A stretch of DNA of 39,715 nt from an uncultured Planctomycetales bacterium (GTDB taxonomy: Bacteria; Omnitrophota; Gorgyraeia; Zapsychrales; Fredricksoniimonadaceae), in the NCBI GenBank assembly GCA_964498235.1, contig CAZCHB010000001.1:1-39715 (forward strand). Direction: 5' to 3'. Both the position numbers and the translations under genes were made by a program. Of this stretch, positions 7,547 through 24,840 are shown piece after piece. Position 1 is the stretch's first letter; each line of letters starts with the position of its first letter. The notes under the pieces were generated by a model, which was not told where the DNA came from, made no database searches, and saw only the letters and a program-made list of their open reading frames with translations.

Positions 7547-7565
7547 GATAATTGAAGTATATCAT

Positions 7566-7594
7566 ATTATAGCGACGATGCCAGTTTTTAGCAA
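7566..7594 (-). promoter_or_regulatory. Candidate sigma70-type promoter for the giant gene (TTGCTA-17 nt-TATAAT on the minus strand)
   Basis: On the plus strand, ATTATA at 7566-7571 and TAGCAA at 7589-7594 are separated by a 17-nt spacer. The element lies about 20 nt upstream of the ATG at 7546. No clear Shine-Dalgarno sits between them, so the leader would be very short. Confidence 0.3.
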
Positions 7595-7797
7595 ATCTTT
7601 TTACACATTTATCTTGTTCATTTTCAATGACTTACGTCTCTAATTAAAAGTATTTAATAATTATCAAATTTATCTCGTTTTTTTATTCTATAAAAAGTAT
7701 AAATTGTATTGACATTTTATAATTTATTAACAACTAAATACAAACACATATATTTCCCGTCGGCATTTTTTGTTTGACAAAATAGTAAAATTTATAA

Positions 7798-7900
7798 AAT
7801 TAATGTCCAGACTGGACATTAATTGTGATTTTTTATCAAAACAATCTCCAGTCTGACAAAATTAATGTCCAGACTGGACAATTATTGTCCAGTCTGGAAA
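7798..7900. repeat. Array of four phased copies of the TGTCCAGWCTGGACA palindrome between the tadC stop and the giant-gene promoter
   Basis: Copy A at 7798-7824 is AATTAATGTCCAGACTGGACATTAATT, a perfect 13-1-13 palindrome. Copy B is degenerate (CTCCAGTCTGACA, centre 7852). Copy C has a perfect core at 7866-7880. Copy D at 7886-7900 is TTGTCCAGTCTGGAAA. The centres 7811, 7852, 7873 and 7893 are spaced 41, 21 and 20 bp apart. Confidence 0.9.
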
Positions 7901-7905
7901 GATTA

Positions 7906-8817
7906 CTACTTAGCCAAGTTTTGTAATGGATTATTTTGGAAGAAATCCAAGAAGACCGGACCAGCAACTAAGATGGCCACTACTGGAAAAATAAATAAAA
8001 GCAGCGGAATAAGCATCTTAAGCGGGGCTTTCATCGCCATGGTTTCTCCCCTGCGGAAACGCGCCAAGCGCATGTCTTCAGAGAGAATATTAAGGGCATC
8101 GCTAACCGAGGTCCCCATGCGGTCGGCCTGAATAAGCGTCCGTGAAAAGGTCGACAGGTCAGGCAATTCATATTTGCGAGCCATGTCGCGCAGGGCATCC
8201 CTGCGAGGCTTGCCCACATTGATCTCCTGTATCATATTTTGAAACTCTTCAATCAACACTGATGGAGCAGACTTTTCAATGACATATTTTAAGGCCATCA
8301 TAAAATCAAGACCAGCATTGACGCAAAGCCCTAAAAGATCAACGGTATCCGGCAATTCCCGCACAATTAAATCGCGCACCTTCCTAATTTTCATCTTCAG
8401 CCAAAATTCCGGCAGGTAATACCCCAACCCAACGCTCATCAGCAAACCAAATAAAAATAACTCTGATTTCGGTCCCATATATACAAAGGTCATCCATAAT
8501 AAGACGGCGATAAAGATTTCCTTAATCAAGAAAAACTCATCAGCCTTTATCGGAAGGCGGGCCATGGCCAAATCTTTTGAAATGCGCTGACCTAAGGGGC
8601 TTATAACAAGCGGGAGATTAAAAACGGCCAGCTTGCTGATAATCATAAATATGAAGCCCAGCACCCCCTTCTTCTTTGGGGCCTTAGCAGGCGCCGCCAA
8701 ATCAAAAGGCGTCGGCTCGATATTTAATTTCGGACGGCTATCCCATTTAAAAGGAACAAAAGCCAATACAAAAATAAATACCGAAGCAAAAATAAACATC
8801 AAACATAACAGTAACAT
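7906..8817 (-). CDS. tadC: TadC-like inner-membrane platform protein (T2SS-F/GspF family)
   Basis: The 303-aa protein has several TM segments and a T2SSF-like core (LPDTVDLLGLCVNAGLDFMMALKYVIEKS; RFRRGETMAMKAPLKMLIPLLLFIFP). It is the second of two tandem T2SSF paralogs. Confidence 0.75.
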   Translation of the reverse strand: MLLLCLMFIFASVFIFVLAFVPFKWDSRPKLNIEPTPFDLAAPAKAPKKKGVLGFIFMIISKLAVFNLPLVISPLGQRISKDLAMARLPIKADEFFLIKEIFIAVLLWMTFVYMGPKSELFLFGLLMSVGLGYYLPEFWLKMKIRKVRDLIVRELPDTVDLLGLCVNAGLDFMMALKYVIEKSAPSVLIEEFQNMIQEINVGKPRRDALRDMARKYELPDLSTFSRTLIQADRMGTSVSDALNILSEDMRLARFRRGETMAMKAPLKMLIPLLLFIFPVVAILVAGPVFLDFFQNNPLQNLAK

Positions 8818-8840: not shown

Positions 8841-9698
8841 TTAAATTTCTTTAAATGACGAAATTCTCCAAATGCTTAAGGCCCCCAAGACCCAAAGCAC
8901 AATACAAATCACAAGCAATCTTTGCCCGTCGGGTGTATTTTTCATTACATCAAAGAAATGCTGATTCCCCGTCGATACGCCAAAATAGAAAAGAATCGGA
9001 AGGCCGGTCATAACCACGGCCTGAATTTTTCCTTGAATGGTCAAAGTCGCCAGATTTTGTTCAATTTTTTTGCGCTCGCGCACGGAGCTGATAATACGCG
9101 CGAAGATTAACGCTAAGTTTCCCCCGGTTTCACGGGCTAAAAGAATCGCCGTTACCATTTGCTGAACAGGCGCGGAGGGCATGCGCTTGTATAAACGGTT
9201 TAAGCTTTCATCTAACGGGACGCCCATTTTGTTCTCGCCTAAGACAATCCCAAATTCCTGCTTGATCGGATCAGGCATTTCATCGACGACCGCTTCAATA
9301 GCCTGAATCAAACTTAAACCCCCGCGGAAAGAACTGGACATGATCATCAGGGCATCCATCAATTGATCATAAAACTTGCGTTTGCGCGCCGCAATCAACT
9401 GGTTTAAGCGCATGCGGGGAATCATAAATCCAAGGGTAAGCCCCGCGATTACAAAAATCATCCGCATTTCTTCAGACGCAAATAAAATGGCCAAGGCCGT
9501 CATAAGCAAAGGAAGAAACAGCATCAGCTGCTGCATTTTCTTGATTTGGTCTTCCGTCAAGACGGCATCATACTTAACGACGAATTTTGCCGCGTTCGCC
9601 TGCGACAAAACGCCGCCGCGGTCAATAAGCAAAGGCAATGCGCCTAACACAAGCAAAACCACTGTCGCAAAAATTAAAGCTAAAGTAATAAAAATCAT
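8841..9698 (-). CDS. tadB: TadB-like inner-membrane platform protein (T2SS-F/GspF family)
   Basis: The 285-aa protein has a T2SSF-like core (LMDALMIMSSSFRGGLSLIQAIEAVVDEMPDPIKQEFG; TIQGKIQAVVMTGLPILFYF) and both N- and C-terminal TM helices. Confidence 0.75.
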   Translation of the reverse strand: MIFITLALIFATVVLLVLGALPLLIDRGGVLSQANAAKFVVKYDAVLTEDQIKKMQQLMLFLPLLMTALAILFASEEMRMIFVIAGLTLGFMIPRMRLNQLIAARKRKFYDQLMDALMIMSSSFRGGLSLIQAIEAVVDEMPDPIKQEFGIVLGENKMGVPLDESLNRLYKRMPSAPVQQMVTAILLARETGGNLALIFARIISSVRERKKIEQNLATLTIQGKIQAVVMTGLPILFYFGVSTGNQHFFDVMKNTPDGQRLLVICIVLWVLGALSIWRISSFKEI

Positions 9699-9716: not shown

Positions 9717-10103
9717 TCAAGGATCACAGTTAGTAGGTCCATTTTCCGACGGATTATTGTTTTCACAGCAATACGCTTTCTGCGCGTCCGTACCGCATTG
9801 CATTCTTGCATTGTCTTCGCATACCTTATCCCTCGGTCCGCATAAGGCAGCCTTGTGGGTAAAACAAACATTGTCATACCACACGCCGTAATCAGTTCTT
9901 AACTGCGCGTACGCGCATTCCGCAGTACGTGCCGTTTGATACTGGCGCCCAAAACCAAAGCTGTCGCCGGAGGTTTTCCAATGCCCGTTGAAAACCCGCA
10001 CAATACGCGGCACAGCAACATATAATGCCCCTAAAATTATCACAATAAGAACCACATACTCAATCATCGCAATCGCCCGTATGTTTGAGTGAACGCGCCT
10101 CAT
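9717..10103 (-). CDS. Pilin-like protein with a Flp/TadE-type N-terminus and a Cys-rich C-terminal half
   Basis: The N-terminus is RAIAMIEYVVLIVIILGAL (IEY followed by a hydrophobic helix). I count 8 Cys in the C-terminal 90 aa. GHWKTSGDSFG resembles the GRWKSTVDDFG / GRLKSSTDDIG motif of the 111- and 123-aa paralogs. The start overlaps the upstream stop by 1 nt (TAATG). Confidence 0.6.
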   Translation of the reverse strand: MRRVHSNIRAIAMIEYVVLIVIILGALYVAVPRIVRVFNGHWKTSGDSFGFGRQYQTARTAECAYAQLRTDYGVWYDNVCFTHKAALCGPRDKVCEDNARMQCGTDAQKAYCCENNNPSENGPTNCDP

Positions 10104-12949
10104 TATAAGGCTCCTTTATCGCATTCAGTCCCGCCGACAAATCTTAATTGAATTTGTTCGCGGCCAGCCCCATTGCGGCCCAATTGATAACGCATGCACG
10201 CCTGAGAACTGATGCCAGAGGGCAATAAGTCTTTGACCACATCCCAGCATGCCCCGCTCTTGACATTAATCATAAAGGCATTGCGTAAGTTTTTCTTGTC
10301 GGCTGAGGTTATTCCCTCTCGGATTAAGGCGTCCAGTGTCGCCTTGCTGAGCCCCACGGCATTGCCGTCGTTATCATCGCGCCCCTCGCCGCAGTATCGG
10401 TTAAGGTCATCATTAATCCTGTCCCAGTCCCTAACCGGTGATCCCGGTTTTGAAAACATCAGTTTCCAGATGGGAAACTTATTCGCAAACGAAACGCCTG
10501 CCTGGCGGTCCTGATCCCAACGGGTAATCTTCGCGGCAACCCTCCCCGTGTGAGCTTGCAGTTCATAACAACGCGTGGAACCTAAAAACCCTTTGGTATA
10601 TGTCCGCACCCACGCCAACCGATTAGGACCACAGTTTCCCTTGGGACAATTGCCCGGACCCGAAACTTCCGCGGAAACAATGTGCCAATACGGTCTCGTC
10701 GATGTTTTTACCGGCGCATCTTTCCACCCATAAATAACATATCCCGGCAATTTACTGGAAGGATCAACTAATACACCGTTATAAATATTAATCAAACTAT
10801 CAATGGGGCCGCCATCTTCTAAGAAGGGTTCTAATTTTGCCAGGAACAGATCAATAGCATTAACCAAATCCCGGGCCTTCGTCTTCATTTCTTTAATTAA
10901 ATCAAGACGGGAATTGAATTTCGTTTTCTGGTATTTTACAAAATAGTCACGGCTGTCTTGCGCCCATTTCATATACAGCGACGGCGTTGAACAAAGATCG
11001 TAAGCTGGCGCAGGCCCTACCAACGAACGCGGTAAATTTTGACAGGAAACAGGCAGAGCAGGCGCCGCACCGCCGGCGCACATTAAAAATGCCGTCTGTA
11101 AATCCGCGGCGCAATCACCGAATTTAACATCATTATCCTTATTGTAATCGAAACAAGCCTCGACGCTCTCCAAGCTTCCCCAGCTCCCTTTTGATAAAAT
11201 ATAATTCTCCTCCGCGGTGGATATCAAATTCAAAGGGTTAGCAAGCGCATTGGCCGGCAAGCACCAGGCATTGTTGGAACTGTCTACGTTATCGGTTTTA
11301 GCAAGCCAGCCATTTAACCAGTCTTTAATTTTATTTAACCGCGGCGGATATTGGCGCAAGCGGCCTTTTCCATCGGGAGTTGCGTCTGTACACTGGTGTT
11401 GGTTGGTAATAGTAGTTATCGTATACGGAGACATGTCGGAACCCGCGTCCATCGTTGTAACCACACACTTCTCCTTAGCAAACCACGTCATGGCATCCGG
11501 ATACCACTGATCAATATTTAACCTCAGCTGTGTAGCATCTCCCTTGCCTAAATTATTGCTCCAGACATAAAATTCTTTCAAACCATAAACAATGTCATCC
11601 CATCCGTCTTCCGGCCACTGCTTCTTATTGATCGATTCGGAACAAGACTTGCATTGCGCAACTCCGTCAACATCAACCGTACACGCACCGCTATGTTTGG
11701 CGCAAACATCATACGGCCAACGGGAGGAACAATACAAATCATAACCTTTCTTCCAATTAAGCCCCGGAAGCGCGCTGTCAATATCATTCGTGCACGTGTT
11801 CTCATCGGCAATCTTATAATCACTCGCAGGAAGAACATTGTCCGTAATGATCCCGGATGCAAATGAGTCCGGTGCCGCCGCAGGGCCGATAGCACGATCT
11901 GGATCTGTCAATAATTTTTCCATCCCCCAAAAAATAGAAAACAGGCCCTTGGCATCGCCTTGATGGGGGTCAAAAGGTCCATCGGGAGACGGCTGACGAA
12001 CCTCGGCATCAACGCCCATCTTGGCTAAAAATGAAGTGCCGTTTTTATAATCAGGGTACGCTGGATCATAGGCATAATAAAACGTGCTCGCGTGCGGCCA
12101 CACCGTGGTATTCGCACAGCCGGGAGGAATATTATCCGCAGAGCAATACCCCGGCCTTAACCTAGGCGCGCTATACGGGTCAAGATTTGGATCTTTAAGG
12201 GGAACACAACATGGGTTGCAATGCGGATCATTAATATCCGTACAAGGAACTGTGATTTCTGCGCTTAACCCCCTTAACGCGTTTAAAAAAAGCGTAAGAT
12301 CATCCGCCGCAACTACCTGTAAGCTTTTTAATCGTTCAGTATAATAAATCCCAAAGCGTGGCACCATGTCCTCTGGCCTGGCTCCGCTAAAACCAATCAT
12401 CCCATTGGTGTTTAAATCAAAAAGATCCGGCACTTGAATTGGATCAGTAACTACATTTTGAATCCCATTCTGCACGCCCTGCTCGACAAATTGCGCGGTA
12501 ATCGGCAAATTAGACTGCATCTTATTCCACAGCCGCGTGAGACCCGGCTGGACAACCAGCACCTGCAAAGCCAGATTTAAAACAGCCATGGCTACCGCGG
12601 CCGCCAATAATGGAGCTGTTGCTGCGCCAAATACCGCTCCGCAGGCCGCGCAAGCCACGCTCAAGAAAACAATGGCAACAACAATAAGCAAGGTCAAAAA
12701 CGCCGCAAAAATACTATTTCTTTTACAAATTTTGGAAACCCCCCCCAAACTAGTCTGCATGACTTTCTCAGCATAACTCGCATAACTGGAGCCCATGGAT
12801 GAGGCGGTCGTTGTCGCCGCTGACATGGTCAAGGTTTTGACTTGGGCAATGCGCTGCCAATTAAGTGAAATGGCAAAAAAGATAATCGCCATGGCGGTCA
12901 GCAAAATCAATATTAAGGACGCCTGTCCTTGGGCTTGTTGTCGTCTCAT
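10103..12949 (-). CDS. TadG-like large pilus-associated protein with a Cys-rich extracytoplasmic region
   Basis: The 948-aa protein begins GQASLILILLTAMAIIFFAISLNWQRIAQVKTLTMSAATTTASSMG, which resembles the TadG/Tad_N pattern. A second hydrophobic block follows, then about 800 aa containing roughly 27 Cys by my count. I saw no obvious vWA MIDAS motif. It overlaps both neighbouring genes, consistent with translational coupling. Confidence 0.55.
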   Translation of the reverse strand: MRRQQAQGQASLILILLTAMAIIFFAISLNWQRIAQVKTLTMSAATTTASSMGSSYASYAEKVMQTSLGGVSKICKRNSIFAAFLTLLIVVAIVFLSVACAACGAVFGAATAPLLAAAVAMAVLNLALQVLVVQPGLTRLWNKMQSNLPITAQFVEQGVQNGIQNVVTDPIQVPDLFDLNTNGMIGFSGARPEDMVPRFGIYYTERLKSLQVVAADDLTLFLNALRGLSAEITVPCTDINDPHCNPCCVPLKDPNLDPYSAPRLRPGYCSADNIPPGCANTTVWPHASTFYYAYDPAYPDYKNGTSFLAKMGVDAEVRQPSPDGPFDPHQGDAKGLFSIFWGMEKLLTDPDRAIGPAAAPDSFASGIITDNVLPASDYKIADENTCTNDIDSALPGLNWKKGYDLYCSSRWPYDVCAKHSGACTVDVDGVAQCKSCSESINKKQWPEDGWDDIVYGLKEFYVWSNNLGKGDATQLRLNIDQWYPDAMTWFAKEKCVVTTMDAGSDMSPYTITTITNQHQCTDATPDGKGRLRQYPPRLNKIKDWLNGWLAKTDNVDSSNNAWCLPANALANPLNLISTAEENYILSKGSWGSLESVEACFDYNKDNDVKFGDCAADLQTAFLMCAGGAAPALPVSCQNLPRSLVGPAPAYDLCSTPSLYMKWAQDSRDYFVKYQKTKFNSRLDLIKEMKTKARDLVNAIDLFLAKLEPFLEDGGPIDSLINIYNGVLVDPSSKLPGYVIYGWKDAPVKTSTRPYWHIVSAEVSGPGNCPKGNCGPNRLAWVRTYTKGFLGSTRCYELQAHTGRVAAKITRWDQDRQAGVSFANKFPIWKLMFSKPGSPVRDWDRINDDLNRYCGEGRDDNDGNAVGLSKATLDALIREGITSADKKNLRNAFMINVKSGACWDVVKDLLPSGISSQACMRYQLGRNGAGREQIQLRFVGGTECDKGAL

Positions 12950-13173
12950 TTCCAGCCTTGGAAAACCGCAGATAAAGGTTTAGGACGATAAAAATCTGTT
13001 TTTAATTGCTCATTAGGATCTGGGCTTTCCGTCAAAGATTTCTCAAAAGTCCAGCGGCGCTCCGCCAAATCCATGCCGGCCCAGCGAAAGATTTGGATCA
13101 GCCCGTACGCTAATAAAAAAAATGCTATTATCACAAAGGTAAATTCAATGGTCGATTGGCCGCGTTTTCTCAT
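12946..13173 (-). CDS. TadE-like minor pilin
   Basis: The 75-aa protein begins KRGQSTIEFTFVIIAFFLLAYGL, which has a G/QxxxEF class-III signal motif. It has 4-nt overlaps with both flanking genes. Confidence 0.65.
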   Translation of the reverse strand: MRKRGQSTIEFTFVIIAFFLLAYGLIQIFRWAGMDLAERRWTFEKSLTESPDPNEQLKTDFYRPKPLSAVFQGWK

Positions 13174-14525
13174 GGCAACCCTCCCGTACTGTCCGTCAGC
13201 CAGAAAATTCCCCGGCGGTCCATCACCCGGGAACGCACATACAGGACCTTGTCCCGTTTACTAAAACACGTCTGGGCCCTGACAACAGAACCGCTGAAAC
13301 AATCATCACGGCAAACTTCGACCGCCGGATTACGCGGGTGCGGCGAATTGCTCCCGTCACAAATAAGCCCCGTGTCACCGCTGACCCCAATACGGCGTTC
13401 AATCAACTCAACCTGATCCGCACGGCTGACACTGCGCACCATCCGCCCGTCCTCGGGATTATACAATTTCCCGTTCTTAACTTTTAAATACGTCCCTTCC
13501 TTGGTGCGCGTATAAATGGCCATGTCCGTCAAGAACCCGTCATTGGCCGATAAATTAATGTCACCTTCCTGAAAATCCAAAACCCTCAGCGTCCTAATCG
13601 CGCCGCCGGGATAATACTGAGGCACCGCATACAGCGTTTCTTCTTCCGCATCGTTATCGATATCATAATAGGGATAATTCGCGTTTGTCGCGTCAATATT
13701 AATGGAGCCCTGAATGCCTCTGACAGCATTCCACTGCCAGGCAATATCTTCGCGGCATACTTTTCCGTAAACGGAAGGCGGATTTCCAGGTCCGCAAACC
13801 AAGGGATCATCGCTAAAATCACCGCCGTTGCGGTTTAAGTCAAACCGTTCCGCCGCAGATATCGTTGAACACGGGTCAGACTCACACCAGCCGGACGTGC
13901 CGCGGGCCACATGCTCATAAAACAATTGACACCCCCGCCATCCCGCCGCATCAGGAACACATTTAAATTCCCAGCCTTTATAGCGGTAAGTCCCATTGCC
14001 GTCGGGATCAGGAGGAGTGGCATATACATCAGCATAGCGTTCTGGACAAGGCGTGATGTTTGTCTTGCACGGTGGCAAAAGTTCTTTATCCATAAGCCTG
14101 GCCATCGTAAATTGAAAATGCTTTCCATTAATAATAATGTCCATCGTCGGCAGATTACCCGGATTATATAAATCAGCTTCATCCACCGGGTACATCAGCC
14201 TATTGGTCATGGTGCCGGATCCTCTTAAATAAAATTGCTGGCGGTCCATGGCGCCGTATTTACCCACTTCCGGGGAAAGCCTGTCTTCAATATACAATAT
14301 GCTGGATGTGTTTCGTCCGACGGTAGGATTATAAGGGTCACCGTACGCCCCCTTGTAGGACAGCATCAGGGCTTCCTTCATGCTTTTTAACTGCTGGTTC
14401 TGCTGGTAGCCTGTCAGCAGGGACGAACGCACAATTGCACCAATAATAAAAATAATGATAGCGCCGAAAACAGCCAGTTCCGTCGCGGCCTGGGCTTTCT
14501 TATAATGTAGGTGCATTATTCTCAT
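13170..14525 (-). CDS. Large pilin-like protein (pseudopilin-type N-terminus, Cys-rich)
   Basis: The 451-aa protein begins KKAQAATELAVFGAIIIFIIGAIV. The remainder is hydrophilic with 12 Cys by my count. Confidence 0.5.
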   Translation of the reverse strand: MRIMHLHYKKAQAATELAVFGAIIIFIIGAIVRSSLLTGYQQNQQLKSMKEALMLSYKGAYGDPYNPTVGRNTSSILYIEDRLSPEVGKYGAMDRQQFYLRGSGTMTNRLMYPVDEADLYNPGNLPTMDIIINGKHFQFTMARLMDKELLPPCKTNITPCPERYADVYATPPDPDGNGTYRYKGWEFKCVPDAAGWRGCQLFYEHVARGTSGWCESDPCSTISAAERFDLNRNGGDFSDDPLVCGPGNPPSVYGKVCREDIAWQWNAVRGIQGSINIDATNANYPYYDIDNDAEEETLYAVPQYYPGGAIRTLRVLDFQEGDINLSANDGFLTDMAIYTRTKEGTYLKVKNGKLYNPEDGRMVRSVSRADQVELIERRIGVSGDTGLICDGSNSPHPRNPAVEVCRDDCFSGSVVRAQTCFSKRDKVLYVRSRVMDRRGIFWLTDSTGGLP

Positions 14526-14533
14526 ATCCGTCT

Positions 14534-14869
14534 CTAATTACTGCCGACGATTGTATTGCCGTTCTTCGTCTCAACCGATGTCGTATTATCTAAACGTGTG
14601 GTGTAATAACCCGGCTGGCCCGTAATAGGATGCAAGTCCAGATGCCCAACGCCAATTTGTGTTTCGGAATTAGAAATTAAGGAATAGTCTGTCTGTGAAT
14701 TGGTGGTGTCCGGATCATATTGCTCGCCGAAATCATCCACCGTTGATTTCCAGCGTCCTTGAAAGCCCCGCTTAAAATACATCTGCATGGTGATAAAAAC
14801 AGCAATAATAATGACCACCAAAACCGTGTATTCCAACGTGCTCTGAGCTTTTCTTTTGAACATCATCAT
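14534..14869 (-). CDS. Flp/TadE-type pilin-like protein
   Basis: The 111-aa protein begins KRKAQSTLEYTVLVVIIIAVF. It is a paralog of the 123-aa product (KRGFQGRWKSTVDDFGEQYDPDTTN versus KRGVQGRLKSSTDDIGDQYSEGNTN). Confidence 0.65.
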   Translation of the reverse strand: MMMFKRKAQSTLEYTVLVVIIIAVFITMQMYFKRGFQGRWKSTVDDFGEQYDPDTTNSQTDYSLISNSETQIGVGHLDLHPITGQPGYYTTRLDNTTSVETKNGNTIVGSN

Positions 14870-14881
14870 ATGCTCCCTGAT

Positions 14882-15271
14882 TTATTTATCATCATCCAAG
14901 GTAAAACCCATATTGGTGATAACTTCAGTTGTTGAGCTTGTCACTTCATTGGCCGTCGTCGTTGACTTATAATTTGACGGATAATAAGTGATGCCGGTGA
15001 TCGCGTTATAAATACCCGTACTTGGAAAATTTTTCTCGTTGACCGAACGCTGGTTGTTAACCCTGCTTTGGGTCGTCATCCGGGTTAGGTGGCTTTGGTC
15101 AAAACTAAAGTCCTGTTCCGCGGCGTTCTGGTAGGCCAACTGGTCGGAGGTGCCGCGTATCACCGTCTGCACCCCGCGTTTAAACGCCGGCCCCATCGCA
15201 TATAACGCCGTGATGACGATGCCTATCAATATGACATATTCCACTATTGTCTGCCCCTGCGTTTTCGTCAT
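14882..15271 (-). CDS. Flp/TadE-type pilin-like protein
   Basis: The 129-aa protein begins TKTQGQTIVEYVILIGIVITALYAM, which has the G/QxxxEY motif followed by a hydrophobic helix. Confidence 0.65.
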   Translation of the reverse strand: MTKTQGQTIVEYVILIGIVITALYAMGPAFKRGVQTVIRGTSDQLAYQNAAEQDFSFDQSHLTRMTTQSRVNNQRSVNEKNFPSTGIYNAITGITYYPSNYKSTTTANEVTSSTTEVITNMGFTLDDDK

Positions 15272-15720
15272 TTCGCATACACCGGTGATATCTGGTTGCT
15301 TTGTGACTGTGCCTGTGTTTGGCTTGAATCCGATTTTGTAAATATGCCAGGCCCTGTCAGCGCCTTGGTTTCTGCGCTGTCTCTCTCAACAATTGAATTA
15401 ACCTGAACATAATACGGCTCATACTCATAGGCCATCTTTCCAGCGTTCATTCCAGCCGCGCCCTGACAATCCGTCGTCCCTTGCGATACATCCACATCCA
15501 CACAGCCTTGAGCCATCATATCAACCATATAAATCTTCGCATCGCGCTCCCTAGCCTGCAGGGTCCGCTGCACATAAATTGAGACGGCCATTATCGCGGT
15601 CACAGCCACAAAAAATGCCACGACAAACTCCGGCAAAACAATTTGTCCCCGATTAGATATCCGCCGCATCATTGCATCATAATAGCCCCAAGCCGGGAAA
15701 TCTTCCCGGCCTGGAGCCAT
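15268..15720 (-). CDS. Pilin-like protein (the true start may be the Met pair at 15672/15669)
   Basis: The 150-aa ORF contains MMRRISNRGQIVLPEFVVAFFVAVTAIMAV. It is a paralog of the 126-aa product (QRTLQARERDAKIYMVD / QRALQARVRDANVYMTS; YEPYYVQVNSIVERDSAETKAL / YEPYYQQSNYEVTRDSVENKRL). Confidence 0.6.
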   Translation of the reverse strand: MAPGREDFPAWGYYDAMMRRISNRGQIVLPEFVVAFFVAVTAIMAVSIYVQRTLQARERDAKIYMVDMMAQGCVDVDVSQGTTDCQGAAGMNAGKMAYEYEPYYVQVNSIVERDSAETKALTGPGIFTKSDSSQTQAQSQSNQISPVYAK

Positions 15721-15744
15721 CCTTATTATACTGTTGACGCTAAA

Positions 15745-16116
15745 CTACTTGCCCCAGTATTCCTGCTGTGAATTCAAGATCTGGGAATTTTCTACCGTGT
15801 TGGTTGTTTCCTTGTCGATCATCTGCGACACAGATATACCCTGCGCGGCTACGCCTGAAGCATTCATACCAAACAATTCCTTGGTCTTTGAATGAACCTT
15901 GGTTTGCTTGATGGCGTTTGTGTTACCTTCTGAATATTGATCGCCGATATCATCGGTCGAACTTTTCAGGCGCCCTTGCACACCGCGCTTGATATAATTC
16001 TGCACGGTCAATAAAGCACCGACAATAATAATGACCAGCACCGCGTACTCCAGGGTGCTCTGGCCGCGGCGATGTCCGCTTAATGGTCCTTTCATCGCAT
16101 GAAAGTGTCTAAACAT
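15745..16116 (-). CDS. Flp/TadE-type pilin-like protein
   Basis: The 123-aa protein has the leader MFRHFHAMKGPLSGHRRG followed by QSTLEYAVLVIIIVGALL. Confidence 0.65.
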   Translation of the reverse strand: MFRHFHAMKGPLSGHRRGQSTLEYAVLVIIIVGALLTVQNYIKRGVQGRLKSSTDDIGDQYSEGNTNAIKQTKVHSKTKELFGMNASGVAAQGISVSQMIDKETTNTVENSQILNSQQEYWGK

Positions 16117-16173
16117 GTTGTGATCCTCCTTGATAAACGTTTCTATCTTTAAACAAAAACCTTTCAGGAAACC

Positions 16174-16554
16174 TTAAATCCCTGAAGGCATTGCTTGATT
16201 TGTAACCGGTTTGGATAAACCAGTAGCATACGTGGTAGTTTGTTCCCCTTCACGGACACGGTTTGTCACCGCGTCGGAACTGATGCCTTCAGCGCCTTCC
16301 GCTAAACGTTTGTTCTCGACGGAATCGCGGGTCACTTCATAATTACTTTGTTGATAATACGGTTCATACTGAACCGAATTTCCTAGTTTGTTTGTTGATG
16401 ATGTCATGTACACATTAGCATCGCGCACGCGCGCTTGTAAGGCACGCTGGGCATATTGCTGCATTGCAATAATCCCGGCAATAACTAAGGCAATCAAAAG
16501 CGCGTATTCCGCGGTGTTTTGGCCTTTTTTCTTTTTTAGAAAGTTTCTAAACAT
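16174..16554 (-). CDS. Flp/TadE-type pilin-like protein
   Basis: The 126-aa protein has the leader MFRNFLKKKKG followed by QNTAEYALLIALVIAGIIAM. An AAGGGGGA RBS lies upstream. Confidence 0.65.
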   Translation of the reverse strand: MFRNFLKKKKGQNTAEYALLIALVIAGIIAMQQYAQRALQARVRDANVYMTSSTNKLGNSVQYEPYYQQSNYEVTRDSVENKRLAEGAEGISSDAVTNRVREGEQTTTYATGLSKPVTNQAMPSGI

Positions 16555-16588
16555 TTTTATTTCCCCCTTTTTAGGAGCTGATTTCTTG

Positions 16589-16616
16589 ATATTAAATAAT
16601 TAATGTTCCCTGTCAA
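16589..16616 (-). promoter_or_regulatory. Candidate internal sigma70-type promoter (TTGACA-16 nt-TAATAT on the minus strand)
   Basis: On the plus strand, TGTCAA at 16611-16616 and ATATTA at 16589-16594 lie upstream of the 126-aa pilin-like gene. Confidence 0.35.
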
Positions 16617-16629
16617 ATTAGGCAATTCT

Positions 16630-16839
16630 TTAATGTGATGAGCCTAATCTGTTGGCCATGTTCGTCATGCTGTTAGTCACCGTTGACAATGATGAGTTCA
16701 GCTTTGATTGAAACGGCCCGGTTGACGAGGTAAGGAACAAAATCGCCACCGAGAGAACGGCTGTCACTAAAACGATGTACTCGACGGTGCTTTGCCCTTT
16801 TCGGCAAGCCTTGTTATGCTTCTTGAATTTATCTAACAT
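16630..16839 (-). CDS. Flp-family pilin (second copy, longer)
   Basis: The 69-aa protein has the leader MLDKFKKHNKACRKG followed by QSTVEYIVLVTAVLSVAILF. A strong AAGGAGG RBS lies upstream. Confidence 0.7.
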   Translation of the reverse strand: MLDKFKKHNKACRKGQSTVEYIVLVTAVLSVAILFLTSSTGPFQSKLNSSLSTVTNSMTNMANRLGSSH

Positions 16840-16873
16840 TTTTTTCCTCCTTAACTACGGAAAAATATAATTA

Positions 16874-17026
16874 TTAATTGGCGAATTCCTCAGTGACCGC
16901 CTTCTGGGTCGCTTGAACGGAACGGAACACATAGGTACTCATCGCGGCAACCGCCGCTGTGACTAACGCCACGACAATGGCATATTCGATTAAGTTTTGT
17001 CCATTGACTTTGTTTAACGCCTTCAT
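16874..17026 (-). CDS. flp: Flp-family pilin, 50 aa (below the ORF-track length cutoff)
   Basis: Translating the reverse complement by hand gives MKALNKVNGQNLIEYAIVVALVTAAVAAMSTYVFRSVQATQKAVTEEFAN. This has the classical G/xxxxEY Flp motif and a hydrophobic helix. It is the first pilin gene of the cluster and has a leader of about 180 nt. Confidence 0.75.
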   Translation of the reverse strand: MKALNKVNGQNLIEYAIVVALVTAAVAAMSTYVFRSVQATQKAVTEEFAN

Positions 17027-17207: not shown

Positions 17208-18617
17208 CTAATTCTCCTCGGAAACACACTTAACATTAATGCTCAAAATTTGGTCCGCTTCGTTTTTAACCCCCAGCGTACTGATTGCAGCACACCCTGA
17301 TTTTAGATTGTCCGCTGTTTCATAAACATTTGGAATTAATAGTGTTACAATCCTAATGTGACTATTAAAAGCGATTTGCCCTTTAAATAACATTAATTGA
17401 GACCACTGATCGTCGCTTAAAAGCCTTGGAAAACAAGACTGCGCCTGCAGCTTTAGGAAATCAATATAATTATTGACCGGTCCCTCGGGACTTTCCGCCA
17501 TAGATAAGGGCCCGTTAAAAGGATGCTGTTTAAAAAATTCGCGCACAATTTCCCCGTCGCTAATCGACTCAGAAAAATTGCTAATGAGAACCTTATAGGG
17601 CTCATTATTCTCTGCGCATAAAATCACTGCGCGGCATTTCATGTTAGCTAACAAGATTTCTTTAGCAAAAAATCTCAGCGGCGCCTCTTGGCCGTAAGCG
17701 TCAACTATTAACATTTCTTTGTTTGAAATATTCATAAATTCTTTTATATCAACTACTTGTGTTCCTATCCCAACAATAAACTGCTTTTTGGGCGCACCTT
17801 CTAAAGGAAAACTGACAAACGCTTCTCCCTCTTTATCCAAAAGATCTATTTTAACAATGCCTTTCCCCGGCCGCCCTTGACACGATAAGAAAAAGTCAAA
17901 AAAGAAGGCCTCAAGCGATTCTCCTGCAACCTCTTTTATTACAATAGGTTGTAAATTGTTTACAAAAAGATTAGCCGCTGCTGTCAGCGCCCTCTCCAGC
18001 GGGGCCGGCCAATTTTTGCCCTCTTTCGCCTGAAGCCCTTGCAAGCGGCTATCCACACAAAAAGAGCTCCCATCTTCTAATAAAAATCTATAACCATAAA
18101 TCACCAAAGACCTATAAAGCAGTTCTTCCTTTAAACTATTGAAATCAAATGATTTAAAATCTTCTAGCGAGCTCATCCCCCGCCATGGTTTGGGAAAAAA
18201 ATCGTAATGCACGGCTTTTAAAATATACTCTCCCGCCCCTTGCTGAATCCCAGCATCTGTTAGCGCCATTAGCGGTTCATGATTAACTGTTTTAACTGCC
18301 GTTGGCAGCTCAATTTTTTCGTGCTTAACGAAAACAGGAGAGGGGCTTGCTTCTTCCAATGGCTTTACGCGCGGTTGAACAAATAACTGCGCCTTCTTTT
18401 CATAAGGAATTTGAAATTTTTCTTTTTGTTTACGGCCGCGGGGACTGCCAATTTTAGCTTCAATTAATACTTCATTGATAGATGATTTTGACACTTGGCG
18501 TTCGAATTGTGTTTGAATTTGATGCGCTAATTCCCGACAGGATAATTGGGGCAATTCACGCTTTTGCGTTAAAATAAAATGGACAATCTCTTCTGTCAGC
18601 TTATATTTAACGCCCAC
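17208..18617 (-). CDS. Unknown protein with an N-terminal helix-turn-helix-like domain, embedded in the Tad operon
   Basis: The 469-aa ORF has a GTG start. Residues 1-60 (KLTEEIVHFILTQKRELPQLSCRELAHQIQTQFERQVSKSSINEVLIEAKIGSPRGRKQ) look like a small HTH domain. I recognise no family in the rest. A palindrome copy lies 19-37 nt upstream of the start. Confidence 0.5.
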   Translation of the reverse strand: MGVKYKLTEEIVHFILTQKRELPQLSCRELAHQIQTQFERQVSKSSINEVLIEAKIGSPRGRKQKEKFQIPYEKKAQLFVQPRVKPLEEASPSPVFVKHEKIELPTAVKTVNHEPLMALTDAGIQQGAGEYILKAVHYDFFPKPWRGMSSLEDFKSFDFNSLKEELLYRSLVIYGYRFLLEDGSSFCVDSRLQGLQAKEGKNWPAPLERALTAAANLFVNNLQPIVIKEVAGESLEAFFFDFFLSCQGRPGKGIVKIDLLDKEGEAFVSFPLEGAPKKQFIVGIGTQVVDIKEFMNISNKEMLIVDAYGQEAPLRFFAKEILLANMKCRAVILCAENNEPYKVLISNFSESISDGEIVREFFKQHPFNGPLSMAESPEGPVNNYIDFLKLQAQSCFPRLLSDDQWSQLMLFKGQIAFNSHIRIVTLLIPNVYETADNLKSGCAAISTLGVKNEADQILSINVKCVSEEN

Positions 18618-18664: not shown

Positions 18665-19003
18665 TCACCAGCTGATTTGATCGCCGACGGCTGTACTGGT
18701 GCGTTCAATTGTACCAGCAGGAAGTTCAATGGCGCAAGCAGATTTCCAGAAAATAGGAGAGAGGTTAAAAGGCCTCAGGTTAGGGCAAAGGCCGACAACA
18801 ATGTTAACTTTATCGACAAAAATAACATCAATGGAAAAGCGCATAAAAAACATATGGACTGATTGGCAAGGCCTGATAATCAATCCCTCGCCTTGTTTTA
18901 ACGCATGCCTGCCAAGCAATCCTTTCATGCGCGCCAAAGACGTGTCAGCGAACACTGCGCTGTCCGCCAATTCACAATGACGTGTATTATTAAGGATTTT
19001 CAA
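18665..19003 (-). CDS. DUF192 (COG1430) family protein
   Basis: The 112-aa protein matches the DUF192 pattern (ADTSLARMKGLLGRHALKQGEGLIIRPCQSVHMFFMRFSIDVIFVD...AIELPAGT). It overlaps the ATPase gene by 14 nt. Confidence 0.6.
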   Translation of the reverse strand: MKILNNTRHCELADSAVFADTSLARMKGLLGRHALKQGEGLIIRPCQSVHMFFMRFSIDVIFVDKVNIVVGLCPNLRPFNLSPIFWKSACAIELPAGTIERTSTAVGDQISW

Positions 19004-21161
19004 TTTTTTTAAATATAGCCTCGCTAAGCGGGATGCCGCGGGTCAGAAAATCGTCAAATGCTTTCGGAATATATCCCGTCGGTATATACTCACCTAAAAC
19101 AACCCCTTCAGGATTGATGCCCTTTTGTTTGAAAACAAAAATATCTTTCATCTCCGGCATCCCTTCGTTCATCTGACCGGTTAACTCTGTAATGGCCGTT
19201 ATTTTGCGGGATCCGTCAGAAAAACGGTTAATCTGGACAATAATATTTATTGCGGATGCGGACATTTCATAAATAGCACGAATAGGCAGTTCAATGCCGG
19301 ACAATAGCACCATTGAGCTTAGGCGCGCCAGAACGTCCCGCGGTGTATTCGCATGCAAGGTTGTCAACGACCCGTCGTGACCCGTGTTCATCGCCTGGAG
19401 CATGTCAAGCACCTCAGGCCCGCGGCACTCACCAATAATAATCCGATCAGGACGCATACGCAGCGTGTTAATAAATAGGTCGCGGATAGAGATACGGCCC
19501 TTGCCTTCAATATTGGGCGGGCGTGATTCTAAGCGAGCCCAATGGCTTTTAGATAATCGCAATTCTGCGGCATCTTCAATGGTGATGATGCGCTCGTTAT
19601 CCGGAATAAACTGGGAAACAATGTTAAGCAGAGTTGTCTTCCCGGCCCCGGTGCCGCCGGAAACTATAATATTTTTACGCCCAATGACGCACGCATTTAA
19701 AAAATCCGCCATGGGTTGGGAAATGCTGTGGAACTTTGTTAACAAATCATCAATGGTGTAACGTTCGCTGGAAAATTTCCGAATCGTTATCATCGGGCCG
19801 TTTAAAGACAACGGCGGAATGATGGCGTTAATACGGCTTCCGTCGGGTAAACGGGCATCCACCATCGGGGTTGACTCGTCAACCCGCCGGCCGAGGGGGG
19901 CAATAATACGGTCAATGGTCGCCCTTACCTGATCATTTGAAATAAAACGTTTGTTTGTCAGGATTAATTTTCCGCGTTTCTCAACAAATATCTCGTCCTT
20001 GCTGTTGACCATGATATCGTTAATTTCAGGATCCGCTAAGAAATCTTCCAACGCCCCAAGGCCCAGAGCTTCATTAACAATCTCGCGCACAAGACGGGAA
20101 CGCTCTTCCTGCGACGAGAGAAACGCGCCGGAAGCCTCTGCTAACAGGTCGGTAATTATTTTTTCCGCCGCTTTGCGGATATTGGCCGACTGCGCCGGGT
20201 CCGTCAGCGCTTCCGGTGATATTTTCTGCAGATTCATCCGCTCAACTAAACGCAAGTGAATAGCTTTCTTTAACTTAACAACTTCATCTTCTTCTTTATT
20301 AAACCCTAAATTCTTTGCCGTTCCTGAATTCGGCGCGATACCAAACTTTTGCCAGAATTCATTTCCTTTTTTAGATGTTTCATCGGCGCTTCGAACCTTG
20401 ATCACATCCGATCCCTGCACAAAAATATCTTCACTTTGAAGCCGTTCCGCGATTTCAAAAAATACTTCTGCCACCTTCATTTTTGGACTATCTATCACGC
20501 AAGGAACTCCGCGGTTTAACGCCATGCCTACTGTTTTCCCGTCGGAAGGAATCAGGGTAAAAATATCGCAAGCAATCGCCGTCTTAACCTCCTGCCATGC
20601 GACACCGCCGCGGCTTTCTGCCCTATTAAGGATCAGCTTAATCATTTTAAGCGGATAATGAAGGCTTTGAATAATTTCCAAGGATGTTTTCGCTTGATAA
20701 ACGGCTAAAATATCAGGTGTCGCCACTAGAAAAATAAGGTTGGCCGAATCAAAAATGCTGATCAAAATTTCGCTGAAGATGTTTCCAGCGTCAATGATGA
20801 TAAAATCGTAAAGTTGGGATGATTTTTTAAAAAATGGGCGGATATTGTCCGCAGTAATGTGGCCAGCCTGCCGTAAATGGTTAACCCCTGGAAGGAAATC
20901 CAACCCGCTGACATGGCGGGTCACATATTTATTAATAATGTCCGGCTTATCATTTTTATCAATCTCTGATAGAAGATCGACGAGAGAATAAGCCGTTGAC
21001 AAATTAAGCATGCGCGCCATGTCCTGGCTCGCGTGCAAGTCCATGTCAACTAAAAGGACGCGGCGGCCTTTAATGGCCAGAGCGGCCGCCGTATTAACAC
21101 TGGCAAACGTCTTGCCGACCCCGCCTTTATTTGAAAAAAATGTGATTGTTTTTGAAGACAT
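18990..21161 (-). CDS. tadA: Fusion protein: an N-terminal ParA/MinD-type (TadZ/CpaE-like) ATPase domain joined to a C-terminal CpaF/TadA secretion ATPase
   Basis: The 723-aa protein has a deviant Walker A (FFSNKGGVGKTFASVNTAAAL...VLLVDMDL) in the first 250 aa or so. From about aa 330 it has CpaF-type motifs: GGTGAGKTTLLN (Walker A), RIIIGECRGPEVLDMLQAMNTGHDGSLTTLHAN. Confidence 0.85.
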   Translation of the reverse strand: MSSKTITFFSNKGGVGKTFASVNTAAALAIKGRRVLLVDMDLHASQDMARMLNLSTAYSLVDLLSEIDKNDKPDIINKYVTRHVSGLDFLPGVNHLRQAGHITADNIRPFFKKSSQLYDFIIIDAGNIFSEILISIFDSANLIFLVATPDILAVYQAKTSLEIIQSLHYPLKMIKLILNRAESRGGVAWQEVKTAIACDIFTLIPSDGKTVGMALNRGVPCVIDSPKMKVAEVFFEIAERLQSEDIFVQGSDVIKVRSADETSKKGNEFWQKFGIAPNSGTAKNLGFNKEEDEVVKLKKAIHLRLVERMNLQKISPEALTDPAQSANIRKAAEKIITDLLAEASGAFLSSQEERSRLVREIVNEALGLGALEDFLADPEINDIMVNSKDEIFVEKRGKLILTNKRFISNDQVRATIDRIIAPLGRRVDESTPMVDARLPDGSRINAIIPPLSLNGPMITIRKFSSERYTIDDLLTKFHSISQPMADFLNACVIGRKNIIVSGGTGAGKTTLLNIVSQFIPDNERIITIEDAAELRLSKSHWARLESRPPNIEGKGRISIRDLFINTLRMRPDRIIIGECRGPEVLDMLQAMNTGHDGSLTTLHANTPRDVLARLSSMVLLSGIELPIRAIYEMSASAINIIVQINRFSDGSRKITAITELTGQMNEGMPEMKDIFVFKQKGINPEGVVLGEYIPTGYIPKAFDDFLTRGIPLSEAIFKKIENP

Positions 21162-21229: not shown

Positions 21230-22948
21230 TTAATAAGTAACTTGGGCGGATCCTGTATTCACCCTTTCTCCCTGCTTATAGATAACCGGGAAACAAATTG
21301 AGATAAAATCTCCAGTCATGTCTGCTGGAAATGGCTCAAAAGGCGCGGAAATCTTTACCGCGTTTAATGCGTCTTCATCTAAAATCGAATGCCCTGAAGA
21401 TTTCTCGGCAAGGACATTTGTCAATGATCCGTCTTTTAGAATATGAAGCCTCACCTTGACGGTCCCCTGCTGATTGTTTTTAGCCGCTTCATCAGGATAT
21501 GTAATGTGCTGTGATACCTTCATTTGAACAGCTCGCACATAATCCGCATCCGCGAAAGCTTCTTGAGGACTAACAGCTTCTGCCTTAGTCTCAACTGGCT
21601 GCGGCGCGGGTGCCGTTGGAGCTGGCGTTGAGTCAGCGCCAGGGATAGGTTCAAACTCGACTTCATTAATCGTATCCATTTCTTTGGTAAAGGCTTTGGC
21701 TTTTTCGGAAGGCATCTTTACCTGCTCCGTGGCAAATTGTTTTGAACGCATGATGGTTGGCGTTAATGTGATGACCAATTCCTTGCCTTCATCGGGAGCC
21801 TGCTTTGACGTGTTTCTAAATAACAGCCCAACAACTGGAATTTTACTAAAGAACGGCACCCGTCTATTTTGTTCACTATCGTTGTAGCGGATAAGGCCGG
21901 CAAATACAACCGTCTGCCTGTCATCAAGCAATAATTGTGTTTGAGCCGAGCGGGTTTTATATGCAATGTCGCTTGTCTTAGTGGCTTGGATGGTAAATGT
22001 CTTATCCACGTCACTGACCTGAAGATTCATGACAACGTCGATTTTTCCTTCTTTAATCGTCGGTGTAACTGTCAAGGTGACGCCATACTGCTTGAATGTC
22101 GTGCTGGCTGTTTGAACCCCGCTTCCCTGCGAAGACGTAATGGACTGAATGGGAACTTCTCCGCCGACGTTAATCGTTGCCTCTTTACCGCTGCTGACAA
22201 GGATGCGCGGCCTGGAAAGATCACGAGCCTTGCCTTCCCGGATCATCAAATTAACCGTGTTAACAATAGCGGTGGTCCTGTTAAATTTACCAAATTTAAA
22301 CCAATCTTTCGCGCCGCCAGTCGGCAGGCCGGATTCTTGGTAATCTAAATTTAATGAGCTTCCAACGGCTCCACCTTGCCAATCAATCCCCAAATTTTTA
22401 TCCAAGGTAGTGCCTAATTCCGTGATCTGCATATCAATTTGTATTAAGTCCTTGCTAACTTCTTCTTTAGACAAATTAATAATCTGTTCGCTGTATGGTT
22501 CGAGTATTTTGTCTAAAAGGCTTTTCTTCTCCTTTAGATATCCGCCCGATACAATTATTCTTCCTTCGCCTGCGTTCGCTTCTAAATTGATCCCGTTAAT
22601 TTCCGCCTCCGTTAACAAATGACGGATGCGCTCCTGCATGGCTTTTAAGTCTTCGCTGGTGACGCGCACATTGATCGAATGTTTACCTTCTTCATCCCAC
22701 AAGAAAACAGATGTCTGTCCGGGCTTTTTTGCTAATATAGATACAACGCCTTCTTTGGCGTCAGCTACATCCGCGATATCTGGTGTGGTCACTGAAACGC
22801 GGGAAAGATTCTTAACTTCTACGTTTTGCAAATCGCCTATAACCATGTTCATGTCCGCCGTCGTATCTGAAAAAACCGGCACCGGAGGAACAACCAACGA
22901 TAAGATAAGAAACAAAGATAGGGTTACGGCTTTATTGTTATTCTTCAT
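21230..22948 (-). CDS. cpaC: CpaC/RcpA-type secretin with a C-terminal TonB_C-like domain
   Basis: The 572-aa protein has a signal peptide (VTLSLFLILSLVVPPVPVFSD) and a secretin core (RRVPFFSKIPVVGLLFRNTSK). A Pro-rich linker (PGADSTPAPTAPAPQPVETK) precedes ITYPDEAAKNNQQGTVKVRLHILKDGSLTNVLAEKSSGHSILDEDALNAVKISAPFEPFP, which matches the TonB C-terminal pattern YP..A....G.V.V.F.I..dG.V....V..SSG...LD.aAl.AV....F.P. Confidence 0.8.
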   Translation of the reverse strand: MKNNNKAVTLSLFLILSLVVPPVPVFSDTTADMNMVIGDLQNVEVKNLSRVSVTTPDIADVADAKEGVVSILAKKPGQTSVFLWDEEGKHSINVRVTSEDLKAMQERIRHLLTEAEINGINLEANAGEGRIIVSGGYLKEKKSLLDKILEPYSEQIINLSKEEVSKDLIQIDMQITELGTTLDKNLGIDWQGGAVGSSLNLDYQESGLPTGGAKDWFKFGKFNRTTAIVNTVNLMIREGKARDLSRPRILVSSGKEATINVGGEVPIQSITSSQGSGVQTASTTFKQYGVTLTVTPTIKEGKIDVVMNLQVSDVDKTFTIQATKTSDIAYKTRSAQTQLLLDDRQTVVFAGLIRYNDSEQNRRVPFFSKIPVVGLLFRNTSKQAPDEGKELVITLTPTIMRSKQFATEQVKMPSEKAKAFTKEMDTINEVEFEPIPGADSTPAPTAPAPQPVETKAEAVSPQEAFADADYVRAVQMKVSQHITYPDEAAKNNQQGTVKVRLHILKDGSLTNVLAEKSSGHSILDEDALNAVKISAPFEPFPADMTGDFISICFPVIYKQGERVNTGSAQVTY

Positions 22949-24827: not shown

Positions 24828-24840
24828 ATTAGCGGCTAAA

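Follow-up and report, generated by a model that had tools for sequence, protein, structure and literature searches.

Omnitrophota are ubiquitous, uncultured and ultra-small bacteria that are thought to live as predators or parasites. According to one study (Seymour et al. 2023, PMC10066038), Tad complexes are a marker of symbiosis in this phylum, and V. archaeovorus, its predatory and sole co-cultured representative, expresses a complete Tad locus when grown in co-culture. Among the closest described systems, the Kil Tad pilus of Myxococcus combines a major Flp pilin (KilP), the adapter Flps KilK and KilO, and disulfide-rich KilL/M/N tips, as deduced from genetics and modelling (Herrou et al. 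2025, PMC12075869); the Kil tips are formed by TadE/F/G homologs (PMC12075869). An Epd-like system of archaea is the presumed ancestor of Tad systems (PMC6668835), and a leader ending in Gly, followed by Gln at position +1 and Glu at +5, is the signature of the EppA-dependent (Epd) pilins of Methanococcus (PMC3875500). Here, we analyzed a Tad locus in a 39.7-kb stretch of an Omnitrophota genome (contig CAZCHB010000001.1, assembly GCA_964498235.1; hereafter referred to as the window), in which eleven minus-strand open reading frames (ORFs) in a row, at 9717-17026, encode pilin-like proteins, whereas the classical Tad/Cpa loci (Aggregatibacter flp-tadV-rcpCAB-tadZABCDEFG; Caulobacter cpa) carry about three to five such genes. 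This block probably encodes all the pilins of a Tad-type (type IVc) pilus machine of Omnitrophota, and a role can be proposed for each of its subunits.

In the order of transcription, the eleven ORFs encode proteins of 50, 69, 126, 123, 150, 129, 111, 451, 75, 948 and 128 amino acids (aa), named p50 to p128 after their lengths. The strict motif referred to below consists of [GA]Q.{3}E[YFL] with a run of 14 hydrophobic residues after it.

p50, 16874..17026, minus strand: candidate Flp-type major pilin; leader MKALNKVNG, mature protein of 41 aa from QNLIEY; strict motif
p69, 16630..16839, minus strand: second short Flp-like pilin, candidate adapter; GQSTVEY
p126, 16174..16554, minus strand: putative minor pilin, paralog of p150; GQNTAEY, strict motif; conserved YEPYY motif
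p123, 15745..16116, minus strand: putative minor pilin, paralog of p111 and p128; GQSTLEY, strict motif; KRGVQGRLKS after the helix
p150, 15268..15720, minus strand: putative minor pilin variant; GQIVLPEF, with Glu at +6
p129, 14882..15271, minus strand: putative minor pilin; GQTIVEY, strict motif; 4-nucleotide (nt) overlap with p150
p111, 14534..14869, minus strand: putative minor pilin, paralog of p123; AQSTLEY, strict motif
p451, 13170..14525, minus strand: large pilin-like protein with 12 Cys; AQAATEL
p75, 12946..13173, minus strand: TadE-like short pseudopilin, GQSTIEF...FRWAGMDLAERR; 4-nt overlaps with p451 and p948
p948, 10103..12949, minus strand: Glu5-less class-III protein with 30 Cys, GQASLIL; candidate cap or tip subunit, or membrane-anchored TadG analog
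p128, 9717..10103, minus strand: p111/p123-type pilin with a C-terminal module containing 8 Cys; A-IAMIEY; 1-nt overlap with p948

The proteins share a common N-terminal layout. After a leader of 4-24 aa, which ends in basic residues and Gly or Ala, come Gln (Ile in p128) and Glu at +5 (+6 in p150, none in p948); a Tyr, Phe or Leu residue then leads into a hydrophobic helix. When all six frames of the window were searched with the strict pattern, 8 matches were found, every one of them the N-terminus of a block gene, while 200 shuffles gave none. The three non-strict variants are those of p150 (GQIVLPEF, Glu at +6), p128 (A-IAMIEY, which lacks Gln and keeps Glu5-Tyr6) and p948 (GQASLIL, without Glu), so that the motif is present in 8 of the 11 proteins strictly and in 10 of the 11 counting variants. 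A preliminary description of this DNA had proposed eleven consecutive genes with class-III-type N-termini, each carrying a [GA]-Q-x-x-x-E-[YF]-like motif. The ORFs and motifs are indeed as it gave them, and the observation is confirmed. Two of the start sites deserve comment. The annotated start of p150 (15672-15720 region) gives an unusually long 24-aa leader, and the orthologs point to the internal Met17 as the probable start (leader MMRRISNRG, then Q). For p451, a public gene call starts three codons later, which yields a protein of 448 aa.

The organization of the block suggested in the preliminary description also stands in most respects. BLASTP agrees with the proposed paralogy: p126 and p150 are 33% identical over 91 aa, p123 and p111 46% over 69 aa, and p128 is related to both p123 and p111 (33-38% over 52-66 aa). 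The Cys counts given earlier as 8, 12 and about 30 are exactly 8 in p128, 12 in p451 and 30 in p948, with 0-2 in the remaining eight proteins. Translational coupling of 'many' genes was a slightly generous wording: the overlaps are real (4 nt for p150/p129, p451/p75 and p75/p948; 1 nt for p948/p128), but they account for only 4 of the 10 junctions, the other six being gaps of 8-75 nt. Purine-rich, Shine-Dalgarno-like stretches precede most of the starts. No convincing terminator or attenuator was found inside the block, including the gap between p50 and p69; the sole strong hairpin lies after tadC.

Profile searches place the N-termini among the class-III (prepilin-type) signals rather than the Sec-type ones. 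p69 scores 25.7 bits against Pfam Class_IIIsignal (PF04021; cut-off 23.7), and p75 scores 24.0 bits against TadE (PF07811; cut-off 22.9, E 4.3e-5). In an ortholog scan that covered the window and seven related loci (72 such ORFs in total), with hits counted at E<0.01, the only recurrent and biologically sensible Pfam families were Class_IIIsignal (16 ORFs, best 1e-8), Flp_Fap (11) and TadE (2). DUF3290, seen in 6 members of the p126 family and always below its cut-off, is probably an artefact of transmembrane-helix matching. Gln+1 and Glu+5 are nearly invariant across the 72 ORFs, and within families the Q+1...E+5 pair is kept in 119 of 120 p123 relatives and in 75 of 79 p451 relatives. The p123 family has 1207 members at E<=1e-3, among which JGI names include 'UPF0333 family' and 'Flp pilus assembly pilin Flp'. 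The mature size of p50 (41 aa) and its G-QNLIEY junction fit the size (about 40-60 aa) and motif of Flp/Fap; a profile of its orthologs gave weak, sub-threshold matches to the PDB, of which the best three and one further are type IV pilins or Flp (E 0.06-2.1). NCBIfam returned nothing relevant for any of the eleven proteins.

The absence of a significant Pfam or NCBIfam match for p150, p129, p111, p451 and p128 leaves some room for a different view, namely that the N-termini are ordinary Sec signals or anchors and that the block encodes unrelated secreted or membrane proteins within a Tad locus. However, a Glu five residues after Gly/Ala-Gln, at the start of the helix, is found in 10 of the 11 proteins (at +6 in p150) and in nearly all orthologs, and this is unlike Sec signals; moreover, Class_IIIsignal, Flp_Fap and TadE are the sole recurrent sensible families. 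In addition, an extra Cys-rich protein encoded in two of the related loci (described below) does carry a plain Sec signal, which indicates that both signal types can be told apart within the same loci. We consider the Sec reading very improbable. Neither of the outcomes that the preliminary description had named as fatal to its interpretation was observed: across the searches, no Sec-type reading fits the N-termini, and the large proteins match no known family.

The signal signature of the block is identical to that of the archaeal Epd pili of Methanococcus maripaludis, and the archaeal Class_IIIsignal is the most frequent Pfam match of the block genes. Further features common to the two systems are a pair of platform genes with one domain each, several minor pilins, and a major pilin of very small size. 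They differ in that the Omnitrophota system belongs to a diderm bacterium and has a secretin and RcpC, that no EppA homolog was identified in it, and that large Cys-rich members are unknown in Epd pili.

When the block was compared across related genomes, as the preliminary description had suggested, orthologs of all eleven genes were found by tblastn in each of eight related Omnitrophota loci, in an identical series and order, after which come TadB, TadC and a giant ORF. Identity to the window across these loci is 60-89% for p50, the most conserved of the eleven, and 45-67% for p126 and p123. The least conserved members of the block are p451 (29-49%), p948 (29-41%), and p150, p129 and p128 (about 28-48%; p129 29-44%). 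For the machinery, the values are 64-81% for the TadZ-TadA fusion, which is kept in the related loci, and 49-72% for TadB and TadC. The synteny and these identities indicate that the array is an old conserved module, in which p50 is the most constrained subunit and the large Cys-rich members evolve fastest. The relatives of p948 found in a species-representative genome collection come from metagenome-assembled genomes only, labelled Candidatus Omnitrophota/Omnitrophica or, in third-party assemblies, 'uncultured Planctomycetales' or 'Planctomycetia'.

Several loci show variation in Cys content. Orthologs of p128 have 7-10 Cys and keep [A/G]xxxxEY. In one locus (L011, 6013-6843), the p150 ortholog is a 276-aa protein with a C-terminal extension and 24 Cys in the whole protein, which shows that Cys-rich modules can move between the pilins of the array. 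The same locus (12762-15707) and another (L012, ~12760-15549) encode, between the p948 and p128 orthologs, an extra protein of ~981 aa with 45-64 Cys and a plain Sec-type signal.

The two largest proteins of the block were examined separately. One search for p451 relatives retrieved 79 members, all unnamed or 'hypothetical', and every organism-labelled one is from Omnitrophota. An AlphaFold2 model of p451 built from 49 sequences (predicted local distance difference test score (pLDDT) 84, predicted template-modelling score 0.77) has a 57-residue helix (residues 2-58) followed by a beta-rich globular domain; the predicted architecture is that of a pilin, with a long N-terminal helix and a beta-rich head. 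Foldseek found no match to this model in the PDB (best E 1.7), nor in the BFVD viral structures at E<=0.001, and profiles of p451 and p948 searched against PDB sequences returned nothing.

The p948 family appeared very rare in a word-index search (11 proteins), a figure that was corrected by an exhaustive profile search to 700 representative clusters, 345 of them at E<=1e-30, with lengths of 640-1,900 aa among 150 listed. For p948 itself, there is no Pfam (E<=0.1), NCBIfam or PDB match, and no Tad/vWA domain is present in six long representatives of the family; one relative carries inserted bacterial immunoglobulin-like (Ig; Big_7) domains. Besides the N-terminal helix, p948 has two further hydrophobic helices (around aa 80-98 and 108-133), and ~800 aa of the protein form its extracytoplasmic region. 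At least three hydrophobic segments occur in the first 200 aa of 125 of 148 family members, and none later. The GQ motif is kept in 131 of 148, and in none of 146 is any of the first 22 residues of the mature protein acidic. Identity is 56% over the first 79 residues, 32% in the Gly/Ala-rich hydrophobic hairpin, 47% over residues 134-232 and 25-47% in the Cys-rich remainder, and the head, with 22-83 Cys across the family, is hyper-variable. Foldseek matches to the p948 model (best E 0.17; tripartite alpha-pore-forming toxins at E>1) are not significant and were not taken as evidence, because the pLDDT of this model is only 58. Even numbers of Cys predominate in both families (110 of 152 p948 relatives, 72%; 62 of 78 p451 relatives, 79%), an excess about five standard deviations above 50%, although the sequences are related and hence not independent; such counts fit paired disulfides in an extracytoplasmic domain. 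The interpretation in the preliminary description is thus partly borne out: of the two large members to which it ascribed class-III (Flp/TadE-type) signal motifs, p451 is modelled as pilin-like, whereas p948 is not a canonical pilin, as its family never has Glu5 and it carries two further hydrophobic helices.

In type IV filaments generally, a tip complex of minor pilins serves as the starting point of assembly, and a subunit that lacks Glu5 caps it (PMC10191384). The p948 family answers to this description of a Glu5-less class-III cap, which is a functional resemblance and not evidence of homology. Together with the Kil precedent in Myxococcus and the translational coupling of the genes, this cap rule makes it plausible, by analogy, that p451, p75, p948 and p128 form a tip or adhesin complex.

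We propose that every product of the block is synthesized as a prepilin, whose short basic leader would be cut off by a prepilin peptidase encoded elsewhere, after the Gly or Ala that precedes Gln+1. p50 would be the Flp major subunit and p69 a Flp-like adapter, the latter a candidate because its size and position parallel those of KilK and KilO. The proteins of 105-150 aa (p126, p150, p123, p111 and p129) would be low-abundance minor pilins that prime assembly and link the fibre to the tip. The coupled genes p451, p75 (TadE-like), p948 and p128 would encode a fast-evolving distal module, presumably stabilized by disulfides, of which p948, as the only Glu5-less member, would be the cap. The TadZ-TadA ATPase and the TadB/TadC platform would extend this pilus through the RcpA-type secretin and present the variable head to the surface of a host or prey cell.

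The block resembles the Kil system of Myxococcus xanthus in several respects. In both cases, a Tad machine is found in a predatory or host-dependent bacterium, the Flp major pilin is short and accompanied by another short pilin of Flp-like type, and a short TadE-like pilin is encoded beside large pilin-like proteins that have domains of unknown fold, many predicted disulfides and variable distal domains. The arrangement differs, in that Myxococcus has four dispersed three-gene tip clusters whereas Omnitrophota has one contiguous eleven-gene array within the machine locus. Furthermore, the Kil system has no equivalent of the five extra minor pilins (105-150 aa), no sequence relation to TadF- or TadG-type proteins is detectable for p451 or p948, and p948 has an extra hydrophobic hairpin.

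The hairpin of p948 allows another view of this protein, in which it is a polytopic inner-membrane assembly factor or anchor, analogous to TadG, with a periplasmic Cys-rich domain, and the tip consists of p451, p75 and p128 only. The three hydrophobic segments in 125 of the 148 family members are in line with this, as is the fact that conservation of the protein is highest in its N-terminal ~230 aa; moreover, Table 1 of PMC10191384 places TadG of Aggregatibacter in the cytoplasmic-membrane sub-complex. On the other hand, Gly-1/Gln+1, kept in 131 of the 148, implies selection for recognition by the peptidase, and the universal loss of Glu5 is the signature of a cap subunit. The fast evolution of the large domain and the Big_7 Ig inserts of one relative also fit surface exposure better than a structural role in the periplasm, and recent models put both TadG and KilN at the pilus tip. 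An anchor role for p948 is therefore unlikely in our view, and we retain it as the candidate cap. The hairpin might hold p948 in the inner membrane as a TadG-like anchor, as in this alternative view, but it could also lie buried inside the tip complex or act upon the membrane of a target.

The genes around the block encode the remainder of the machine. Minus-strand genes occupy the left three quarters of the window, and their order of transcription is a Rotamase_2 peptidyl-prolyl isomerase, RcpC/CpaB, secretin, TadZ-TadA, DUF192, a 469-aa protein and the eleven pilin-like genes, then TadB, TadC, a terminator-like hairpin and the giant ORF.

RcpC/CpaB, 22951..23802, minus strand: Pfam RcpC 82 bits; TIGR03177 (pilus_cpaB) 91.6 bits against a cut-off of 71
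RcpA/CpaC-type secretin, 21230..22948, minus strand: Secretin, T2SS-T3SS_pil_N and TonB_C, all above their cut-offs
Fusion of a TadZ-like ParA/MinD domain and a TadA/CpaF-type ATPase (723 aa), 18990..21161, minus strand: T2SSE 194.5 bits; AAA_31, CbiA and ParA in the N-terminal part
DUF192 gene (112 aa), 18665..19003, minus strand: Pfam DUF192, E 2.5e-18; overlaps the end of the ATPase gene
Soluble 469-aa protein, 17208..18617, minus strand: N-terminal HTH_32 at 22.2 bits, below its cut-off; upstream boundary of the pilin block
tadB-type platform protein (285 aa), 8841..9698, minus strand: single T2SSF domain (PF00482), E 1.5e-16
tadC-type platform protein (303 aa), 7906..8817, minus strand: single T2SSF domain (PF00482), E 3.3e-18

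Judged by its sequence, the machine is Tad-type (type IVc), because it has a TadA-like ATPase, split TadB and TadC, RcpA, RcpC, a TadZ domain, a first pilin of Flp size and a TadE-like pilin. The best NCBIfam match of the ATPase is TIGR03819 (TadA family) at 319.5 bits, which is under the equivalog cut-off of 373, while GspE/PilB models score 30-37 bits. Two separate platform proteins with a single T2SSF domain each have been described for Tad systems (PMC10191384, PMC6668835). These components, together with the Flp-size major pilin, the TadE-like pseudopilin and the G-xxxxE[YF] cleavage motif, are shared with the classical Tad/Cpa loci. The Omnitrophota locus departs from them in the location of the pilin genes between tadA and tadBC, the fusion of tadZ to tadA, the TonB_C domain of the secretin and the Gln at +1. 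As had been pointed out previously, tadB and tadC are displaced from tadA, and both lie ~9.3 kb from the tadA-type ATPase gene. No tadD, rcpB, tadV or tadG of the PF13400/vWA type is present in the window, and no needleless type III secretion system was seen there.

Some features of the neighbouring genes can be added. The TonB_C domain occupies aa 481-558 of the secretin, and the same fusion is found in a related locus (L001). The 469-aa protein has orthologs of up to 613 aa in related loci and no transmembrane segment, and is possibly a regulator. The DUF192 gene is likewise conserved in related loci, and its product has no transmembrane helix. The Rotamase_2 gene, which is conserved, lies directly upstream of rcpC.

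Downstream of tadC, separated from it by ~350 nt, starts a giant ORF (2-7561, minus strand), which is cut off by the left end of the window and therefore encodes at least 2,515 aa. Its product contains a Peptidase_C39 domain (aa 203-283; Pfam, 36.7 bits against a cut-off of 22) as well as hydrophobic stretches rich in Gly/Ala, but no more than 6 Cys. Giant ORFs are found at the same position in related loci (L001, 6,007 aa by gene call; L003, L009, L011, L012, L013 and L015). C39 domains near the N-termini of Omnitrophota giant proteins have been described in a preprint (10.1101/2023.11.21.568195), and the giant ORF matches the published 'Archaeovorin'-type giant genes. The spacer between tadC and the giant ORF (7560-7905) is AT-rich (~35% GC), and contains a terminator-like hairpin at 7898-7868 (14-bp stem, -26 kcal/mol, z -3.3) as well as a promoter-like site at 7594-7566. 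These elements suggest that the giant ORF and tadC are separate transcription units.

The constant position of the giant ORF after tadC in the related loci raises the question of whether the machine is a type II secretion-like endopilus, i.e. a pseudopilus piston with minor pilins in the role of GspH-K, and with the giant C39 protein or its products perhaps as cargo. The same preprint (10.1101/2023.11.21.568195) calls the locus type II secretion-like and conserved upstream of the giant genes, and a later (2026) preprint reports that secretion or pilus genes flank 13 of 14 giant genes. With at least five members, the set of minor pilins is also closer in number to those of the type II secretion system (T2SS) and of the type IVa pilus (T4aP) than to that of classical Tad. 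The initiation complexes of T4aP and T2SS (PilHIJK/FimU-PilVWX with PilY1/PilC; GspHIJK) share with the Omnitrophota block at least five minor pilins, one Glu5-less capping subunit (in the block, the candidate p948) and a large adhesin-like protein associated with the tip. However, the Omnitrophota machinery belongs to the Tad/type IVc clade, its large proteins are themselves class-III proteins, and neither Foldseek nor PDB profile searches gave any sequence or fold match between these large proteins and PilY1, GspK or related proteins. Tad-type features extend from the ATPase, for which GspE models score only ~36 bits, to the split platform, CpaB, TadZ and the major subunit of Flp size (41 aa); the strong terminator-like hairpin and the AT-rich spacer part tadC from the giant gene; and the giant proteins are reported to have SecA-like domains of their own and many transmembrane helices (10.1101/2023.11.21.568195). 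An endopilus thus appears a minority possibility, deserving slightly more weight than the anchor role of p948. It is also conceivable, at about the low level of that anchor role, that the Tad machine is a contact or attack device and not a simple adhesive pilus, in which the hairpin and head of p948 insert into or breach the envelope of the host or prey, or couple the pilus to the giant 'Archaeovorin' C39 protein; the Gly-1/Gln+1/Glu+5 signature would then mark a retained archaeal, Epd-like processing.

Taken together, these comparisons favour a Tad pilus with a complete set of pilins encoded in the block, but several observations weigh against it. The Flp_Fap (PF04964) matches of p50, p69 and p126 score 12.9-15.2 bits (12.9 for p50) against a cut-off of 32.2, and the gathering score is never reached by a protein of the window. 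No ORF of the 39.7-kb window matches an A24 prepilin peptidase (TadV/CpaA, the type that lacks a methyltransferase domain), although the classical tad and cpa loci include such a gene; as none lies in or near the Tad locus, the enzyme that is presumed to process the leaders must be encoded elsewhere in the genome. The 469-aa protein and the DUF192 protein were considered as the missing peptidase and rejected, since neither has a transmembrane helix. The two extra hydrophobic helices are awkward for a subunit that leaves the membrane, and the AlphaFold2 model of p948, which was built from a 10-sequence alignment, is of low confidence. Pfam and profile searches detect no homology of p948 or p451 with TadG, TadF or the vWA domain, and p948, with no match to a TadG profile or vWA domain, can at most be regarded as analogous to TadG in position and function. 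The tip complex itself is drawn by analogy and is not a result, and the conserved giant ORF beside the locus might instead point to a role in secretion.

The novelty implied in the preliminary description was overstated. The conserved locus upstream of the Omnitrophota giant genes, with its small class-III genes, had already been described in 2023 (10.1101/2023.11.21.568195), and tip complexes are known from Myxococcus. What we did not find in the literature examined is the full count and order of the eleven genes, the recognition of p451 and p948 as class-III proteins, the Glu5-less, hairpin-bearing p948 family, and the Epd-like Gln+1 signature. The present analysis proposes roles for eleven genes that had lacked annotation (one major pilin, one adapter, five minor pilins and a tip module of four genes) and defines two sizeable families without a known domain, p451 and p948. 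The assignments offer targets for further work: the putative tip proteins for host range, N-terminal peptides in proteomes, and defined protein sets for multimer modelling. They would also extend the concept of a 'customisable Tad tip' from Myxococcus to a distant phylum, and indicate that the minor pilins of a Tad system can be of a complexity closer to that of T4aP.

Finally, the Tad locus lies ~10 kb from dnaA and near dnaN, gyrB, gyrA, yidC and parAB, in the region of the replication origin (23832-39574), at the right end of the window. This position resembles that of the Tad locus reported for V. archaeovorus, at 12-30 kb of its genome.

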